Assembly: GCA_965198095.1 (NCBI GenBank)
Contig: OZ240239.1
Location: 1,785,869-1,849,868, forward strand
Direction of reading: 5' to 3'
Length of the DNA stretch: 64,000 bases
Source: Candidatus Latescibacterota bacterium
Lineage (GTDB): Bacteria > Latescibacterota > UBA2968 > GCA-2709665
The notes beneath the pieces are model-generated. The model was not told the origin of the DNA and searched no databases. It worked only from the letters and a program-made list of their open reading frames with translations. Made by a program: the position numbers and the translations under genes. Below are positions 9,718-45,010 of the stretch, one piece after another; positions within the stretch are counted from its first letter, which is position 1; each line of letters opens with the position of its first letter.

Positions 9718-10497
9718 ATGGCCGTTGCGACGATAAAAGAACTCCTCGGGGCCGGTGTGCACTTCGGACACCAGACCCGAAGGTGGAATCCGAAGATGAA
9801 GAAGTACATCTTCACCGAGCGCAACGGTATCTATGTCATTGACCTTCAAAAGACGCTGAAGCTGATCGACGCCGCCTACGAGGCCGTTCGCGATGCTGCG
9901 GAGAACGGTGAAGCAATCCTGTTCGTGGGCACGAAGAAGCAATCCAAGGAGATCGTCCGCCGAGAGGCCGAGCGGTGCGGGATGTTCCACGTCACGGAGC
10001 GCTGGCTGGGTGGCATGCTCACCAACTACCAGACGATACGGCAGTCCATCCGGCGTCTGGAGGCCCTCGACAAGATGAGCGGGGACGGCACGTACGAGCA
10101 TCTGACGAAGAAGGAAGTGCTTCAGCTGGAGGCGGAGCGCGAGAAACTTCAGAGAACTCTGAGCGGCATCCGGGACATGGGGCGCCTCCCGGGGCTCGCT
10201 GTTATTGTGGACACACGAAAAGAGAAGATCGCCGTCGGAGAGGCCAATCGATTGGAAATTCCGATCGTCGCCATCGTGGACACGAACTGTGATCCCGATG
10301 AGATCGCGTATCCGATTCCGGGCAACGACGATGCGATTCGGTCCATCATGCTGATCACCCGGACAATGACCGACGCCGTTCTCGAAGGCCAGAAAATGCG
10401 TGAGGAGCGGATCGGGCAGGCGTCCGCCGTGGCCGGGAAACCGGAGGCCGGCGCGATGGTGGGCACCGAGATTACCGAAATCGTAGATACGAGGTGA
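9718..10497 (+). CDS. rpsB: 30S ribosomal protein S2
   Basis: [46 protein letters not shown]... Confidence 0.96.
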
Positions 10498-35510: not shown

Positions 35511-35849
35511 TCATTCACATCCGGGCCCTCTCGCTTCCCTGTCGGCGGTGTCTTGCGGGACGAGACCGGCAACAAGACCGACGGGGTCGGTCCGATGCCG
35601 AGCGAGCAGCTCCTGGAGCTGAGCGAGGACCTTTTCGCGGCTGGACAGTCCATACATATAGATTCTCATCGGACCGATCAGTTTGAGATAGTAGTGGTTC
35701 CCCGCAGAGTACGCCGTGGAACAGGCGCCCGGGTTCTGGGCGACGCGGAGCTGTTCTCCGAAGACCTTCCCAAATTGGGCGAGCAGCGGTTCCTCGTGAA
35801 GGTCTTCAGGAATCTCTGGAAACCTTGCGACCAGTTCTTGAAGTGTCAT
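35511..35849 (-). CDS. Hypothetical protein (112 aa) immediately downstream of the radical SAM gene
   Basis: MTLQELVARFPEIPEDLHEEPLLAQFGKVFGEQLRVAQNPGACSTAYSAGNHYYLKLIGPMRIYMYGL... ATG 35849 follows GGAAAGG and lies 38 nt after the extended radical SAM stop. Confidence 0.5.
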   Translation of the reverse strand: MTLQELVARFPEIPEDLHEEPLLAQFGKVFGEQLRVAQNPGACSTAYSAGNHYYLKLIGPMRIYMYGLSSREKVLAQLQELLARHRTDPVGLVAGLVPQDTADREARGPGCE

Positions 35850-35886: not shown

Positions 35887-37215
35887 CTACGCAAGAGCAA
35901 ACTGCTCCTCGGTCGGTTCCGCTCAGCAATACCAGGGCTCTGTCAGGTAGGGAACCGTCGCCAGGCATCGTTGGATCCCGGGGTCGTAATCCGGATGGGT
36001 GTGGGCCAGAGGGGGGTTCGCACCCTGCCAGACCGCCCCGAACGTCTCTCTCCTGGACGCCGTCCCGGCCAAACCCCCTTTGACGATTTCACTGACCTCC
36101 TCCTGCAGTCGATCGACCGCCGGGTCCGGATGCTTCCACGGGTAGCTCAGGCTCGCCGGATGGAAGGGCGCGATCACGTCCCGAATGTCGTCGAGCGCCA
36201 GGAGTCGGGAGCCTTCCGGGATCAGAAGACGAATGGCCAACTGAGCGGGTGAGACGTGCTCGATCAGCTCGAGGTCGCTGAGCGTTTGCAGGAAATCGGC
36301 GTAGCCGTCGCGCGTCGTCCAGGGCGAAAACGGGATGAACGTGGGGTTCAGAGTGATCCCGTGCGCTCGGCAGAGCTGGAGCGCCTGGAGAAAGTCTTCT
36401 CGCGTATGACCCTTTTCCAGCAGGAGGAGGACCGGATCGTCGAACGACTCCACGGCCGTCGTGATGATCTTGCAGCCTGTCTCTTTCAGGACGGCGAGCT
36501 GTTTTTCGTGCTTGAGGAGATGCTCCACCTTGATCGTCGCGTCGTAGGTGAGGCCCGGGAAGGCTTCGTGGAGGGTCTCAACCACCCGAAGCGCGTGGCC
36601 GATGCCGTTCAGAAAATCGGGATCCCCGAACGTGATGTGCCTGGCCCCCGCGGAGACCTGCCGGCGGATGTCCTCCAACACGATTTCCGGCTGAACGATC
36701 CGGAACTTGCCGTCGTAAACCGGGACGACGGGGCAGTGGCGGCAGAGGTGCTTACAGCCCCGGCTGGCCTCCGCATAGCCGACCTCTTTTTCTGAACCGT
36801 CGACGTCCTTGAGCCGGGCATAGCTGGAGAGGGGGGGCAGGCCGGTTCTGTCGGGGACCCGGTGCTGCTGTCGCTCCAAGGAGACGACCGGCTCCGGCTG
36901 CGGTCCTCGGATCGATCCTGAATCGCGGAGGGATTGAGCTAGGTGAAGGAGCCCGGCCTCGAATTCGCCCCCAAGGATCGTCTGGGCGCCCAAATTTCGA
37001 AGATAGGGTTCGTTCACGGAGGCGTAGAGCCCGTAGAAACAGATGTGAGCGCCGGGATTTTGAGCCTTTACGCGCTCCAGGACCGGCACGGCGAGGCGGG
37101 TTGCGGTGTGCATGGGGATGTAGAACGCGACGAGATCGGCTCGGCGCACCGCCGCTTCGGGCAGATCTTGCACCGAGAGGTCAGAGAGGGCGACCTCCAT
37201 TCCGACGCGCCGCAA
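35887..37215 (-). CDS. B12-binding-like domain / radical SAM protein with in-frame UGA (candidate selenoprotein, C-U-A-E-P tail)
   Basis: Radical SAM box SRGCKHLCRHCPV. The ORF track ends at TGA 35923..35925 (...EPWYC*), but the frame continues AEPTEEQFALA to TAG 35887..35889. The N-terminus probably extends upstream of 37215 (KVVLISTYELGRQPFGLASPAAW) without a canonical start codon. Confidence 0.65.
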
Positions 37216-37327
37216 CCAGGCGGCCGGAGAGGCCAGACCGAAAGGCTGACGGCCCAGCTCGTAAGTCGAAATCAGAACGACTTTCAGAGCTGGGCCGTCG
37301 GCCTTTCCGGCGCTGATGTGCGTTCCC

Positions 37328-37909
37328 CTATTTGGTCGGCTGATAATAGGGATTTCTTCCGTCTGCGTGCTCGGTAACGTCCATGATTTGCTCGATCTCC
37401 GGAACCGCCTCTTTGATCATTACTTCAACACCCTGCTTGAGTGTGACATCGACCATGCCGCACCCTTGACATCCCCCTCCGAACTGGACGTAGGCGACGT
37501 TGTCCTTAACGTCTACCAAAGAGATGAATCCTCCGTGGGAGGCCACGCCCGGATTGATTTTATCGTCGATGATCTGCTGAACCTTCTCCGCGGCCGTGCC
37601 CTTCAAGTGGGGCGGGACCCGGTTCGGGTTGTCTATTTTGAAACCCCTTCCGGTGAGCCCGTCCATGAAGTCGAGCTTAATGTCCCGGCAATAGGGCGCG
37701 CTGCCGGAATCGACGTAAATGTTGAAGCCCTCGAACGCGATGACTTCGTCGTCGGGGGTTTCCTGGCCCTCCGCAAGGAAAGCCAATCGGTAGTTCGCCT
37801 GGAGGGGAGACGTGGCCTCGGCCTTCACCCTGACGCCAAGCACTTTGGCATCCTGGCTTTCTATCAGCTTGGCGATCTCCCTCTGCGCAACCTCGGTAAC
37901 GGTAACCAT
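37328..37909 (-). CDS. nfuA: Fe-S cluster carrier NfuA-type (degenerate A-type N-domain plus Nfu C-domain)
   Basis: MVTVTEVAQREIAKLIE...NYRLAFL... and a C-terminal GGFISLVDVKDNVAYVQFGGGCQGCGMVDVTLKQGVE (CxxC Nfu motif). Confidence 0.8.
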   Translation of the reverse strand: MVTVTEVAQREIAKLIESQDAKVLGVRVKAEATSPLQANYRLAFLAEGQETPDDEVIAFEGFNIYVDSGSAPYCRDIKLDFMDGLTGRGFKIDNPNRVPPHLKGTAAEKVQQIIDDKINPGVASHGGFISLVDVKDNVAYVQFGGGCQGCGMVDVTLKQGVEVMIKEAVPEIEQIMDVTEHADGRNPYYQPTK

Positions 37910-37911
37910 CT

Positions 37912-38427
37912 CTATCCTCCGGCAGGTGGTAGGACAGCCTCACCTTGGCCGTCCCTTTGGGTCGGATGTTCCCGGTCGATCTTTTCTTGAATCTTCATCA
38001 GCGCGTAGAGCAGATCCTCGGGGCGAGGGGGACAGCCCGGGACGTAGACATCTACGGGAAGAAACTGATCTACGCCCTGAACGAGGGTATACGTGTTGAA
38101 GACGCCTCCGGAGGAGGCACAGGCCCCCATGGAGATCACCCACTTCGGATCGGGCATTTGATCGTAAATCTTCTTGAGCACGGGCATCATCTTGAGGGAG
38201 ATGCGGCCGGACACAATAAGCAGGTCAGACTGCCTCGGAGAGAAACGGACGGCCTCGGCGCCGAATCGGGCCATGTCAAACCGCCCGGAGAGCGTGGCCA
38301 TCATTTCGATTGCGCAGCAGGCGGTGCCGAAGGGCATCGGCCACAGCGAGCTCTTCCGCGCCCAGTTGATCATCCTGTCCAGCGTGGTCGAAATGACGTT
38401 CTCGCCCAGATTCGTCTCCAAACCCAT
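37912..38427 (-). CDS. NuoB-like protein (complex I 20-kDa/PSST subunit paralogue), orphan copy
   Basis: [16 protein letters not shown]...[12 protein letters not shown]...[11 protein letters not shown]...[15 protein letters not shown]: all four N2-cluster Cys positions are present. A second NuoB lies inside the nuo operon at 45882..46367. Confidence 0.8.
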
Positions 38428-38490
38428 CTCGATCTCCGATCGTCGGATGATGACGCGCTCAATACAAGATACGAAGAATCGGGAAACGCG

Positions 38491-38976
38491 TCAATTATCG
38501 ATGACTTGAAGGACCTCGCCCGCCATCTCCTGAAAGCATCCTCTCAGCTCGCGCTCCTCACGAACAAGCAGATCCTGGAGTGTAATGCGGCCGAGCACCT
38601 GGTCGATCGCGAACTGCACGGCGTTCCAAAGCGAACGGATGGAGCAGTCTACGGAGTGGGTACAGAGCTCCACGACCCCAGTGTGCTCGTCGCAAAAGTT
38701 CGGGCCGAAGAGCCTGCCGCCCAAGACCGTGAGGACGTCGCCGACCACGATCTGATCCACCGGCCTGGAGAGACGGTAGCCGCCCGTTTGACCCCGGGTG
38801 CTTTCCACGAAGCCCCCAATCCGCAAAATGCGCATCAGCTTCGCCACGTTGGGAATCGAAAGCCCCTCGGCCTGACTGATTTCCGGAATCGTGAGGCCGC
38901 GACCGACATCGAGTTCATTCCGTCCAATCTGAATGAGGCACCGCAGTCCGTATTCTTCCTGAGCGCTCAGCTTCAT
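38491..38976 (-). CDS. Rrf2 family transcriptional regulator (IscR/SufR-like, three-Cys cluster site)
   Basis: MKLSAQEEYGLRCLIQIG...LTIPEISQAEGLSIPNVAKLMRILRIGGFVESTRGQTGGYRL... and CDEHTGVVELCTHSVDC. Confidence 0.85.
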   Translation of the reverse strand: MKLSAQEEYGLRCLIQIGRNELDVGRGLTIPEISQAEGLSIPNVAKLMRILRIGGFVESTRGQTGGYRLSRPVDQIVVGDVLTVLGGRLFGPNFCDEHTGVVELCTHSVDCSIRSLWNAVQFAIDQVLGRITLQDLLVREERELRGCFQEMAGEVLQVIDN

Positions 38977-39003
38977 TCTCCAGTCCCCGTTTTGATCGAG
39001 CGT

Positions 39004-39585
39004 TTACAGCATGCCCAGCTCGAGTTTCGCGGCCTCGGACATCATATCCGGATTCCAGGAGGGCTCGAACACGAGGCTTAGAACGACGTCTTTCACGCCG
39101 GGCACGCTACGCACCTTGCTTTCCACCTCTGCGGGAAGGGTGGCTGCGGCGGGGCAATTCGGCGACGTGAGGGTCATCTTGACGTGCGCCATTCCAGACG
39201 GTTCGATCCTGGTTTCATAGATCAATCCAAGCGCATGGATGTTTACCGGAATCTCGGGATCATAGACCGTTTCGAGAATCTGCACGACCTTCTTTTCCAA
39301 CTCGGTGATGTCCAAATCCGGCTCGGGTGAGGCCTCCAACCGCGCCTTGCGGTCTGCAACCTCCTCCGACTTCTGGTCCGCATAGGCGGTCAACGCCTGG
39401 ATGTCGATCGGGGCCGTCTCTTCCTTCCGAGGCGTTTGATACGATTCCGCCTCTTCCGGCGGGCCGCCACGAGAGCCGAACACGCGATGCTTCAGCCGCT
39501 CGAAAAGTCGATTCGGAAATTTCGGGGCCACCTGTTCTCCTCCAGGCTGTTTTTTCGGGCTATTCCGTCGTCGCCGGTGCGCCAT
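39004..39585 (-). CDS. sufT: DUF59/SufT-type Fe-S assembly protein with an approximately 95-aa low-complexity N-terminal extension
   Basis: C-terminal domain VVQILETVYDPEIPVNIHALGLIYE...VKMTLTSPNCPAAATLPAEVESKVRSVPGVKDV. The start is uncertain and overlaps the sufU 3' end by 26 nt. Confidence 0.65.
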   Translation of the reverse strand: MAHRRRRNSPKKQPGGEQVAPKFPNRLFERLKHRVFGSRGGPPEEAESYQTPRKEETAPIDIQALTAYADQKSEEVADRKARLEASPEPDLDITELEKKVVQILETVYDPEIPVNIHALGLIYETRIEPSGMAHVKMTLTSPNCPAAATLPAEVESKVRSVPGVKDVVLSLVFEPSWNPDMMSEAAKLELGML

Positions 39586-40012
39586 TTCCGTGGAGCGCCG
39601 CTTTTAGCGTGTGCCAGGCCAGGGTCGCGCATTTGATTCGCGTCGGAAAGGCCCTTACGCCCGAGAACACGGCAAGCTTTCCCATTTCATCCAGATCCGG
39701 GGCGGCGTCATCATCGCCTGCAACGAGATCGTGGAACTTGCCGAAGAGGGCCTCGGCTTCCTCTACGCTTTGTCGCTTCAGAAGAGAGGTCATCAACGAC
39801 GCCGATGCCTTCGAGATCGCACAGCCGGACCCCTGGAAAGTAATCTCCTCGATCCGGTCATCCTTCAGCTTCAAGTAGACGTTGACGTGGTCGCCACAGA
39901 GGGGGTTGTAGCCTTCCGCCGATCGATCGGCATCTGCGAGCGCCCTGAAATTGCGAGGGCTTTTGTTGTGATCCAGAATGATCTGCTGGTAGAGCTCACG
40001 CAGGTCGAGCAT
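39560..40012 (-). CDS. sufU: SufU-type (IscU-like, zinc-dependent) sulfur transfer protein
   Basis: MLDLRELYQQIILDHNKSPRNFR...GYNPLCGDHVNVYLK...ITFQGSGCAISKASASLM...RIKCATLAW. The ATG lies 1 nt after the sufS stop. Confidence 0.88.
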   Translation of the reverse strand: MLDLRELYQQIILDHNKSPRNFRALADADRSAEGYNPLCGDHVNVYLKLKDDRIEEITFQGSGCAISKASASLMTSLLKRQSVEEAEALFGKFHDLVAGDDDAAPDLDEMGKLAVFSGVRAFPTRIKCATLAWHTLKAALHGNGAPATTE

Positions 40013-40013
40013 G

Positions 40014-41291
40014 TCAGAATATCTCCCGCACCTTATAGAGACCTCGGGCCAGGGCGTCGATGTCGTGCCTGGTGTTGTAGCACGCGATGGCTGCACGGGT
40101 GGTCGCGGAAATCCCGAAGCGCCGCATCAAGGGTTGTGCACAGTGATGACCGGCTCGGACAGCGATGCCTTCCTGGTCAAGAACGGTCCCGATATCGTGT
40201 GGGTGGATGCCTTCGACGACGAACGAAAGGACGCTCACCTTTTTGTCTGCCGTACCGATAAGCCTGAGATCCGGTATGTCCGAGAGGATCTGCGTGGCAT
40301 ACGAGAGGAGGTCCGCTTCATAGGCCGCGGCGTCGTTCAGACCGATCTCTGCCAGGTAGTCGATGGCCGCCCCGAGCCCGATTCCGCCGGCGATCTGAGG
40401 CGTGCCGGCCTCGAATTTATTGGGGGGCTCGGCGTAGGTCGTCTTTTCAAAGGTGACAGACCGGATCATACTCCCCCCTCCCTGGTAAGGGGGCATGGAC
40501 TCGAGGTGCTCCGCCTTTCCGTAGAGCACGCCGATGCCCGTCGGGCCGTAAAGTTTATGCCCGGAGAAGGCGTAGAAATCGCAATCCAGAGCCTGGACGT
40601 CGACTTCCAGATGAGGAACGGCCTGCGCACCGTCGAAAAGCACGGGGACGCCTCGTTCGTGGGCCAGGTTCACGATATCGGAAGCCGGATTGAGGGTGCC
40701 GAGGACGTTTGAAACGTGCGCGACCGAGACGAGCTTCGTTCGCGGGGTGAGCAGCTTTTCATATTCCTCCAACAACAGCTCTCCGCGGTCGTTGATCGGA
40801 ATGACGCGAAGCCTCGCGCCCTTCTCTTCACAGAGCATCTGCCAGGGAACGATGTTGGAGTGGTGTTCCATTTCGGAGATAAGGATCTCGTCGCCCGTTC
40901 CCACCTGCCGCCTGCCGAAGGTCTGTGCGACGAGATTGATCCCTTCGGTTGTGCCGCGCACGAAGACGATCTCCTTGTCGTGCGTTGCGTTCAAGAAACG
41001 CCCAACCCTGTGGCGCGCTCCTTCGTAGGCATCGGTGGCGACTTGGCTCAGGTGGTGCACCCCTCGGTGAACGTTGGCGTTTTCGAGCGCGTAGTAGCGA
41101 TGAAGGGCGTGGATCACGCGCCGCGGTTTCTGGGCCGTGGCCGCATTGTCCAGATAGACCAGGGGCTTGCCCCTTACCCGCTGCCCGAGGATCGGAAAAT
41201 CAGCGCGAACCGCTTCCGCGTCGAACGGTCCCGGTCTCTGGACCCGCGGGAAGGAGGGATCCTCCGCGAGGATGTGGGACGGCAGACTCAT
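40014..41291 (-). CDS. sufS: Cysteine desulfurase SufS (group II)
   Basis: VYLDNAATAQKP...ANVHRGVHHLS...FYAFSGHKLYGPTGIGVLYG...RAGHHCAQPL. Confidence 0.93.
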   Translation of the reverse strand: MSLPSHILAEDPSFPRVQRPGPFDAEAVRADFPILGQRVRGKPLVYLDNAATAQKPRRVIHALHRYYALENANVHRGVHHLSQVATDAYEGARHRVGRFLNATHDKEIVFVRGTTEGINLVAQTFGRRQVGTGDEILISEMEHHSNIVPWQMLCEEKGARLRVIPINDRGELLLEEYEKLLTPRTKLVSVAHVSNVLGTLNPASDIVNLAHERGVPVLFDGAQAVPHLEVDVQALDCDFYAFSGHKLYGPTGIGVLYGKAEHLESMPPYQGGGSMIRSVTFEKTTYAEPPNKFEAGTPQIAGGIGLGAAIDYLAEIGLNDAAAYEADLLSYATQILSDIPDLRLIGTADKKVSVLSFVVEGIHPHDIGTVLDQEGIAVRAGHHCAQPLMRRFGISATTRAAIACYNTRHDIDALARGLYKVREIF

Positions 41292-41303
41292 CTATCGTGG
41301 CCT

Positions 41304-42641
41304 TTACCCCTGAGGGAGGATTGGAGAACGTTCGAGCTTCGCCTTGACCCAGTCGTTCAGACGCGTCCGCACGGCGTCAATTCGGACGTTGTCCAGGATC
41401 TCGTCCGCAAACGCCTGGATCATAACCTGCCGGGCGGTTTCGGGCCCGACGCCTCGAGACCGGAGATAAAAGATGGCCTTTTCGTCGATCTGTCCGATCG
41501 TGGCTCCGTGAGAACATTTGACGTCGTCCGCGTAGATCTCGAGCTGGGGTTTCGCGACGACCGAAGCGTCATCGGAGAGAAGCAGGTTCTGGTTGGTCTG
41601 GTAGGCGTCCGTCTTTTGCGCGGTCTGATGGACGTAGATTTTGCCACGAAAGACCCCCTTCGACCTCCCGTTCAGGATGCCTTTAAAGAACTCGTGGCTG
41701 GTGCAGTGCGGCGCCACGTGCTCGATCAACGTGTGGTTGTCCACGTGCTCGGACGCGTCGAGCAGGTAGAAGCCGTTTACCGTCGCTTCCCCCCCCTCGC
41801 CGGCCAGTCGGGCGTTCACTTCGTTCCGGACGAGACGTCCTCCGAGTGAGATCGTGTGGGTGGAGACGTTGCTGGCGCCGCCCTGAGAGGTCTGTGTGGT
41901 GGCGACGTGAAAGGCCGCTTCGTTCTCCAGAACGAGTTTATAGTGATCGACAACCGAACCTTCCCCCGCTACGATCTCGGTGACCGCATTCGTGAAGTAA
42001 GGGGCGTTCCCGAATCCGACGTAAGTTTCAACGATCGAGAGCGCGCCGTGCGCTTCCGTAAGGACGAGGCAGCGGGGGTGGGAGACGATCGGCCGTTCGT
42101 CTGCGGTCGAAACAAAAAGGATGTGGACAGGCGCGTCGAACGCGACGTTCCTCGGAACGTGGACAAAGGCGCCGTCGTGGACGAAGGCGGTGTTGAGCGC
42201 GGTGAACGTCTGGGCTTCATAGTCTGCGTATTGGCCCAGGTGTTTGGACAGGAGGGTGTCTTCCGGGTCGAGGTCGGCGCTTAAGCTGCCCGCTCTGGCT
42301 CCGTCGGGCAGGTGCTCGAGCGACGAAAGCTCCGGGGCGTAGCGTCCGTTCACGAAGACCAGCTGGATGGCGTCGTAAGCGAACGGTTCGATCTGCTCCG
42401 GGCCCACCGCAACCGGCCTGCCTCTGAGCGCCGGTTGGAACCGCGTCGCGACGATGGGCGCCGCGTTCGTGTAGCGCCACGCCTCGTCGCCCGTCGTCGG
42501 AAAATCCAGGCGCTCAAACCGATCGGCGGCCTGCCTGCGCAGACTGCGGAGGGGGAAGCGGTCGGCTCCGTTCAGACCTCTCTCGAACGCCCTGTGGGCG
42601 GAAAGGTAGGCTTCTTTTGTTTGGGCCGCGGGCCGTGCCAT
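41304..42641 (-). CDS. sufD: Fe-S cluster assembly protein SufD
   Basis: N-terminal ...FPTTGDEAWRYTN... and C-terminal KPQLEIYADDVKCSHGATIGQIDEKAIFYLRSRG. Confidence 0.9.
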   Translation of the reverse strand: MARPAAQTKEAYLSAHRAFERGLNGADRFPLRSLRRQAADRFERLDFPTTGDEAWRYTNAAPIVATRFQPALRGRPVAVGPEQIEPFAYDAIQLVFVNGRYAPELSSLEHLPDGARAGSLSADLDPEDTLLSKHLGQYADYEAQTFTALNTAFVHDGAFVHVPRNVAFDAPVHILFVSTADERPIVSHPRCLVLTEAHGALSIVETYVGFGNAPYFTNAVTEIVAGEGSVVDHYKLVLENEAAFHVATTQTSQGGASNVSTHTISLGGRLVRNEVNARLAGEGGEATVNGFYLLDASEHVDNHTLIEHVAPHCTSHEFFKGILNGRSKGVFRGKIYVHQTAQKTDAYQTNQNLLLSDDASVVAKPQLEIYADDVKCSHGATIGQIDEKAIFYLRSRGVGPETARQVMIQAFADEILDNVRIDAVRTRLNDWVKAKLERSPILPQG

Positions 42642-42656
42642 GGTTGCGCTGTTCTC

Positions 42657-43430
<774 letters not shown>

Positions 43431-43449
43431 GCGTGTTCCTCCTGCTCTC

Positions 43450-44916
<1,467 letters not shown>

Positions 44917-45010
44917 GCGAAGGGTCCCTTTCTCCAAAGGTTGGAATGGCGGAGAAACCGGACGTTTCTTACGTTAACGCTCGTGGGCTGGTCCCGCCTC
45001 CAGACCCCAC

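Follow-up and report, generated by a model that had tools for sequence, protein, structure and literature searches.

A mis-annotated CUAEP-tail radical SAM selenoprotein gene in Candidatus Latescibacterota and its relation to the ArsL family

In this work, we focused on a gene for a radical S-adenosylmethionine (SAM) enzyme located on the minus strand of a 64,000-nucleotide stretch of Candidatus Latescibacterota bacterium DNA (contig OZ240239.1, positions 1,785,869 to 1,849,868), hereafter referred to as the window, in which an in-frame UGA codon is almost certainly read as selenocysteine (Sec). The characterised enzyme closest to it is ArsL (NF040542), a radical SAM enzyme of canonical fold that acts in arsinothricin biosynthesis. 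ArsL cleaves SAM into methylthioadenosine and a 3-amino-3-carboxypropyl (ACP) species of radical or organometallic nature, the latter being joined to As(III), which is held by the three cysteines of a C-terminal RCCLKC tail. Deletion of this tail leaves SAM cleavage intact and abolishes product formation. ArsL is described as having only six conserved cysteines, shared equally between the cluster motif and the tail. The family to which the present gene belongs, NF040546, was named as uncharacterised in a 2022 preprint, in which CU motifs were also noted in proteins handling heavy metals; a full-text literature search on 'CUAEP' retrieved no further relevant paper.

When the protein was compared with curated families, ArsL came second, with 281.7 bits over residues 4-397, and the next family reached 51 bits. 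The two enzymes share about 400 homologous residues, covering the N-domain and the radical SAM core, as well as a vicinal pair near the C-terminus, which is CC in ArsL and CU here. They differ in the number of tail ligands, two here (one of them Sec) against three in ArsL, and in their genomic surroundings, since no arsM, arsQ or ars operon is found here and the neighbours are an ATP-grasp ligase gene and genes of iron or iron-sulfur (Fe-S) trafficking.

The gene is a mis-annotated member of the already curated selenoprotein family NF040546, which has no assigned function. Its features are the following:

35887..37323, minus strand: gene of the CUAEP-tail radical SAM selenoprotein in its longest form, from the NF040546 match, the translation and the junction alignment; 5' end uncertain
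37216..37287, minus strand: conserved N-terminal segment (L)KVVLISTYELGRQPFGLASPAAWL (KVVLISTYELGRQPFGLASPAAWL itself 37216-37284), absent from the public 425-residue call
36733..36756, minus strand: radical SAM [4Fe-4S] motif CX3CX2C (CKHLCRHC), invariant in the family
35923..35925, minus strand: in-frame UGA read as Sec, directly after an invariant Cys (Cys-Sec pair)
35890..35922, minus strand: tail AEPTEEQFALA, encoded by GCG GAA CCG ACC GAG GAG CAG TTT GCT CTT GCG
35893..35909, minus strand: hairpin AGGAGCA-GUU-UGCUCUU of bacterial SECIS (selenocysteine insertion sequence) type, 13 nt after the UGA (the 14th base being its start), with a G/U apical loop

Once the UGA is taken as a coding position, the protein scores 619.1 bits (E = 4.4e-186; cut-off 500) on the NCBIfam equivalog profile NF040546, 'CUAEP/CCAEP-tail radical SAM (seleno)protein'. 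Residues 3-464 of the query align with positions 1-467 of the 468 of the profile, and the alignment therefore runs through the tail. A preliminary description of the locus, made from the sequence alone, had pointed to a CUAEP/CCAEP family of this kind, and the equivalog match above cut-off bears this out. The score, the C-(Sec/Cys)-A-E-P tail and the CX3CX2C motif are those of a family member. Compared with other members, the protein itself shows no difference, the full-length match, tail, motif and Sec/Cys alternation being those of the family; what sets this copy apart is the lack of a canonical start codon and its separation from the usual ATP-grasp neighbour. Taken jointly, it is nearly certain that the product is a selenoprotein of about 466-478 residues at full length and that it is a member of NF040546.

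The radical SAM box proposed in the same description was found in SRGCKHLCRHCPV (Cys codons 36754-36756, 36742-36744 and 36733-36735), and the Pfam domain Radical_SAM (PF04055) was detected at 58.4 bits. Its B12-binding-like N-domain holds as a likeness only, the score against PF02310 being 26.2 bits for a threshold of 32.1. Two further cysteines, C83 and C272 (numbered from the CTG codon at 37285-37287), are invariant or nearly so in the family and could complete a metalloid or cluster binding site.

At least 8000 scored relatives were retrieved by protein search. Among the best 120, about 105 end in ...EPWYC and 14 run on as ...EPWYCCAEPT(E/S/A)xQ(F/L/V)A... At the DNA level, orthologues were taken from 80 species-representative genomes, out of at least 595 with a match. 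On the minus strand of the window the frame reads ...ATVPYLTEPWYC (ending VPYLTEPWYC), then TGA at 35923-35925, eleven sense codons and TAG at 35887-35889, so that letters and translation agree with the open frame of eleven codons described previously. Such an opening is in itself unremarkable, its expected frequency, (61/64)^11, being about 0.6.

The comparison between genomes is more telling. Across 79 related genomes, the codon following the invariant Cys is TGA in 58, TGC in 17 and TGT in 4, and this column is directly followed by AEP in 78 of the 79 (SEP in L079 being the exception). The Sec/Cys column with a conserved AEP, which the preliminary description had put forward as a check, is thus found, and its opposite, orthologues with no conservation of the eleven codons beyond the Cys, is not, the tail being of identical type in Sec-form and Cys-form proteins. 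Among the TGA genes, 57 or all 58 agree at each of the first two positions of the Ala, Glu and Pro codons, and the third bases vary freely. Variation confined to third positions shows that the peptide translated after the UGA is under selection.

The 7-bp hairpin first noticed at 35893..35909 is the minimum-free-energy fold of the 40 nt that follow the UGA. In every TGA gene, a hairpin can be folded that starts 13-14 nt past the UGA and has a loop of the form (A)G(U/G)U(N), and G24 and U26 (counted from the U of UGA) are invariant in the 58 genes. Two pairing registers are used within the family. The window gene falls into class I, which comprises 32 genes and has stems of the GAGC/GCUC type. 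Pairing at the five inner positions of the stem is seen in 158 of 160 cells for the TGA genes of this class, with AU/GC compensations at 20-30 and 18-32, and in 29 of 45 cells for its Cys genes. If the two pairs closest to the loop are left aside, the Cys genes have 11 of 27 cells paired. Over all genes, the mean contiguous stem has 5.7 bp and -7.5 kcal/mol where the codon is TGA, as against 2.6 bp and -0.9 kcal/mol where it is Cys (Mann-Whitney p ~1e-7). In one fixed register, the TGA set exceeded all 500 shuffles for paired and compensated cells, and no such excess was obtained for the Cys genes in the same test. The use of a single fixed register for all genes was dropped, since the two registers of the family dilute the signal; splitting by class resolved this. 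A local case is given by the Bryobacteraceae, in which TGA genes read ...GCTCTT... (Leu) and Cys genes ...GCTCAT... (His), the latter with a broken outer stem.

The hairpin can thus be described as conserved with compensations in TGA genes and decayed in Cys genes and, on this comparative footing, it is a conserved SECIS-type element, with putative SelB binding. As in known bacterial SECIS elements (e.g. that of E. coli fdhF), it is an intragenic hairpin located soon past the UGA, its apical loop lies 20-23 nt downstream with an unpaired G and U, and it overlaps the codons that it helps to decode. It differs from them by its short stem of 5-8 bp, its loop of 3-5 nt, its two registers and the lack of an Rfam model, no model of this database matching the hairpin at E up to 1.

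One pair of this stem deserves separate mention. At alignment A2 columns 18/32 (window 35908/35894), a Glu codon contributes its third base to the pair and a Leu or Pro codon its second. GAA is accompanied by CTT (Leu) and GAG by CCT (Pro), the window having a G-U wobble (GAG with CTT). RNA pairing therefore drives an amino-acid switch in the tail, and the hairpin offers a clean example of an RNA structure that constrains the protein in which it lies.

Elsewhere in the window, TGA serves as a normal stop at the expected lengths for four neighbours, i.e. rrf2, sufS, an epimerase gene and an open reading frame (ORF) of 112 residues. Recoding is therefore site-specific, with no change of genetic code, and a genome-wide reassignment of UGA was ruled out on this ground. 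Together, the Sec/Cys column, the selected tail, the TGA-linked hairpin and the use of TGA as a stop in other genes fit site-specific recoding of the SelB type. The window was also scanned for other selenoprotein genes (TGA with coding-like flanks); none of the ten candidates stood out, and the two that were inspected looked like adjacent genes in one frame.

The public gene call has 425 residues, beginning at MEVAL and stopping at the Cys before the TGA. It is cut at both ends, the real product being about 40-50 residues longer. At the N-terminus, the residues of KVVLISTYELGRQPFGLASPAAWL, a strand and loop, are invariant or nearly so in the family, and they are encoded at 37216-37284, upstream of position 37215 where the preliminary description had set the gene start; that start has to be given up. 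The first in-frame ATG, GTG or TTG is the TTG at 37215 and none lies upstream, so that no canonical start precedes the conserved N-terminus. In the closest relative (L085, 77 % identity), the junction reads TAA GGG ATG CAG..., and the codon of the window aligned with this ATG is ACG (37321-37323), 4 nt past the nfuA stop. An ancestral ATG start thus appears, from this alignment, to have been replaced by ACG. The near-cognate candidates are this ACG, an ATC at 37315-37317 with GGGGA 6 nt upstream, and the CTG at 37285-37287. The odd start may reflect near-cognate initiation, perhaps helped by termination-reinitiation after nfuA, or an assembly error. Two other accounts were set aside. A fusion of NfuA and the radical SAM protein by frameshift was ruled out by the in-frame TAA that stands just before the ATG in the closest relative. 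A pseudogene is not supported either: among 175 columns conserved at 95 % or more, the window protein deviates at 5 and its nearest relative at 8, which is within the range of other members.

No close solved structure was found by sequence search of the PDB, which returned distant radical SAM enzymes only and no ArsL structure. An AlphaFold model of a natural CCAEP member was of good quality overall (predicted local distance difference test, pLDDT, 88.4; predicted template modelling score, pTM, 0.89), its final 30 residues having a pLDDT of 73-82. The folds closest to it are those of the two-domain radical SAM enzymes AprD4, TsrM, MgmA, MiaB and OxsB, RimO being also among them together with MiaB; these neighbours include the B12-binding TsrM and OxsB as well as AprD4. 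We infer an enzyme made of a Rossmann-like N-domain, a radical SAM barrel with its CX3CX2C site and a C-terminal arm that bears the vicinal Cys-Sec pair.

We then assessed which genes accompany the family. The conserved partnership with ATP-grasp and iron-trafficking genes is newly documented here. Three entries of the neighbourhood are needed for what follows:

37328..37909, minus strand: nfuA, Fe-S cluster carrier of TIGR03341-type architecture (Pfam Fe-S_biosyn and NifU)
37912..44937, minus strand: same-strand string sufB, sufC, sufD, sufS, sufU, sufT, rrf2 regulator and nuoB paralogue (NCBIfam and Pfam)
locus L092, 10001-11236, same contig (record positions 1,821,278-1,822,513), about 675 kb from the radical SAM gene: ATP-grasp orthologue P0252

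A gene with the ATPgrasp_N, ATP-grasp_4 and LAL_C2 domains adjoins the radical SAM gene in 51 of the 80 genomes, in several phyla, mostly in the same direction, convergently in the relatives of the window and, in a few genomes, upstream. Among named proteins, it scores best against the L-amino-acid ligases BacD (68.8 for a cut-off of 850) and DdaF (54.9 for 840), and no curated family cut-off was reached by this partner. BacD and DdaF ligate unusual amino acids into dipeptides. The partner has the same domain architecture as these ligases, and differs from them in that it scores far below their cut-offs; its gene lies outside the window. In the present genome, P0252 is intact, is 67 % identical to the ATP-grasp protein of the relative with an 8-Mb genome and keeps its usual DUF2953 and YtfJ/GerW neighbours. 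A rearrangement has split here the radical SAM/ATP-grasp pair, whose genes are still adjacent in the relative at 77 % identity. A rhodanese gene and molybdopterin oxidoreductase genes were also seen near P0252.

YggX, an Fe(2+)-trafficking and oxidative-damage protection protein, is encoded next to the radical SAM gene in 39 of the 80 genomes, and nfuA directly upstream of it in 8 (full-length match), with a partial match in a further 3. The putative link with Fe-S supply proposed in the preliminary description is backed by gene order, NfuA or YggX being adjacent in many phyla.

As a whole, the selenoprotein reading combined with ArsL-type chemistry and with roles for the partner genes is the explanation that we favour, with a probability of roughly 0.6. 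Its chemical part, an ArsL-like ACP transfer with a substrate-binding arm, is drawn by analogy and is tentative, being less likely than not. According to this proposal, the Cys-Sec arm would capture a soft atom (metalloid, chalcogen or metal) and swing it towards the SAM site. The aminocarboxypropyl unit would be linked to it there by a carbon-heteroatom bond, giving an ACP-derived amino acid. The co-conserved ATP-grasp enzyme, of L-amino-acid-ligase type, could then ligate this amino acid, and NfuA (here) or YggX (elsewhere) might supply or protect the Fe-S cluster. A wider extension, more doubtful than the transfer itself, is that of a two-enzyme module of soil bacteria (Acidobacteriota, Methylomirabilota, Latescibacterota and others), in which the radical SAM and ATP-grasp enzymes, often with YggX or NfuA, would build an ACP-derived amino acid or dipeptide not described so far, in which a metalloid or chalcogen might be present; the heteroatom would be held by the Cys-Sec arm while the carbon-heteroatom bond is formed.

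Several observations weigh against this explanation. Regarding ArsL, the score of 281.7 lies below the family cut-off of 450, the tail YCUAEPTEEQFALA lacks the RCCLKC motif and the third tail Cys, and no ars gene, arsM, arsQ or methyltransferase gene was found within 10 kb, the neighbours being suf, nuo, nfuA, guaA and similar genes. Regarding chemistry, the sequence does not tell ACP cleavage from 5'-deoxyadenosyl cleavage, and the conserved C83 and C272 could, with the tail pair, instead ligate an auxiliary cluster. The fold after the UGA is no more stable than that of shuffled sequences (z = -0.34 over 40 nt and +1.1 over 91 nt); since single-sequence folding is non-significant, only the comparative data count for the hairpin. 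Neither SelA, SelB nor SelD was detected with E. coli queries (tblastn, with a working positive control) in the 64-kb window, the 80 related loci and a further 21 kb of the contig, and ARAGORN found no tRNA, hence no tRNA-Sec, in the window or these 21 kb. This search covered only about 2 % of this contig of 4,289,748 bp, and a genuine absence of the Sec machinery is unlikely because the tail is under selection and the hairpin is linked to TGA. Finally, full-length expression is not assured, because no canonical start precedes the conserved N-terminus.

Four other explanations were considered. The one that survives best, unlikely as it is, assigns the arm a redox role: the enzyme would perform ordinary 5'-deoxyadenosyl chemistry, and the Cys-Sec pair would be a mobile selenenylsulfide couple that moves electrons and binds no substrate atom. 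Thioredoxin reductase (GCUG) and MerA (CC) carry a vicinal pair on a flexible C-terminal segment, and a vicinal Cys-Sec near the C-terminus is the hallmark of the thioredoxin reductase arm. As in these enzymes, the pair found here could carry electrons, or a soft metal, into an active site buried in the protein; their fold and catalytic core are unrelated to those of the present protein, and the resemblance is one of principle only. A redox role also agrees with the Cys-Cys substitutes present in 21 of 79 genomes, which are typical of redox selenoproteins, with the pLDDT of 73-82 of the last 30 modelled residues, which fits a mobile arm, and with the canonical radical SAM enzymes found as nearest folds. 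It is opposed by the tail of ArsL, by far the closest characterised relative, which binds the substrate without affecting SAM cleavage, and by the lack of a conserved reductase partner nearby.

Distinctly less probable is a second Fe-S cluster ligated by C83, C272, C454 and U455, which would be consumed or act as sulfur donor as in LipA, MiaB and RimO, and be rebuilt by NfuA or YggX. Such a cluster would account for the four extra Cys/Sec positions conserved in the family, for MiaB and RimO being among the nearest folds and for the adjacency of NfuA or YggX in many phyla and of the suf operon here, NfuA being established as restoring the sacrificial cluster of LipA. Yet the Cys-rich tail of ArsL binds no cluster. 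Two adjacent residues, moreover, are ill suited to ligating the same cluster together, and Sec is not known as an established ligand of Fe-S clusters.

The third explanation, weak expression or incipient loss of this one copy, is slightly less credible again. It would be in line with the ACG at 37321-37323 aligned with the ATG of the relative at 77 % identity, with no ATG, GTG or TTG before 37215, and with the ATP-grasp partner being 675 kb off and outside the window. Against such a decay, the ORF is intact over about 466 codons, has kept its Sec codon, hairpin and tail, and departs from the conserved columns at 5 of 175, fewer than in its closest relative; the partner gene has been retained intact. 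Moreover, the 4-nt gap after the nfuA stop and the GGGGA located 6 nt before the ATC would allow coupled or near-cognate initiation, and the ACG could be an assembly error. That the UGA is a plain stop codon and the protein ends at ...EPWYC is highly improbable: public gene calls do end at that Cys and the Sec machinery was not seen in the sequence searched (the 64-kb window, 80 related loci and a further 21 kb), but the eleven codons past the UGA reproduce the family tail, intact in Cys-form proteins, their variation is limited to synonymous third positions, and the hairpin is conserved only where the codon is TGA.

The gene order around the selenoprotein gene was also surveyed. The gaps from the nuoB paralogue through the radical SAM gene are of 2-4 nt with no terminator-like site between them, which makes co-transcription plausible. 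The string sufBCDSU-sufT-rrf2-nuoB-like-nfuA upstream of the gene is as previously described; the gene is not its distal member, since another ORF follows on the same strand. The nuoABCD operon is divergent from the suf string. The same suf-string order was found in L002, L003, L005 and L086, i.e. two Latescibacterota metagenome-assembled genomes (MAGs), one MAG labelled Gemmatimonadota and one 8-Mb genome, SufB being 85-86 % identical in the two Latescibacterota MAGs and the MAG labelled Gemmatimonadota. A short related contig (L087) has part of this order, from sufU to nfuA without the nuoB paralogue.

The nuoB-like gene (37912-38427, minus strand), located between rrf2 and nfuA, shares 58 % identity with the nuoB of the divergent nuoABCD operon and 93 % with its positional counterpart in three related MAGs. 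It stands there as a lone NuoB paralogue within an operon for Fe-S assembly. In L002 (~9900-9970), L003 and L005, nfuA and the radical SAM gene are separated by a spacer of about 80-100 nt, as compared with the 4-nt junction of the window. By eye, the L002-type spacer shows an inverted repeat and, after it, a T-run (GGCAGAC...GTCTGCCGTTTTTTT), suggestive of a terminator between nfuA and the radical SAM gene in these three genomes; the feature went unreported in a simple terminator scan.

The gene that follows the selenoprotein gene is this one:

35511..35849, minus strand: conserved hypothetical gene of 112 residues, 37 nt downstream of the radical SAM gene

Its product is 77 % identical to that of the ORF at the same position in L085 and has about 221 database homologues, mostly of exactly 112 residues and ending in GPGC(E/Q), with no Pfam or NCBIfam match. 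The public call of this gene has 127 residues and starts inside the selenoprotein tail. Homologues occur in Methylomirabilales, Calditrichota and other groups; their contexts vary, and two of them lie near Rieske proteins. This real, conserved gene was rejected as a dedicated partner, since elsewhere it lies away from the radical SAM gene; because its contexts elsewhere are unrelated, it is a lineage-specific neighbour and not a family-wide partner.

For the window itself, the practical point is one of annotation, the public call of 425 residues being truncated at both ends. The remaining interest lies in the function of the family and its sisterhood with ArsL, in the conserved partner genes and in the odd start codon. 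NF040546 is one of the few selenoprotein families without a known function and it is a large one, with more than 8000 database proteins and at least 595 species-representative matches. It is the sister family of ArsL, the only radical SAM enzyme of the canonical kind for which transfer of the SAM aminocarboxypropyl group is known, and its pairing with ATP-grasp and iron or Fe-S trafficking genes provides a concrete, testable starting point for finding its substrate.

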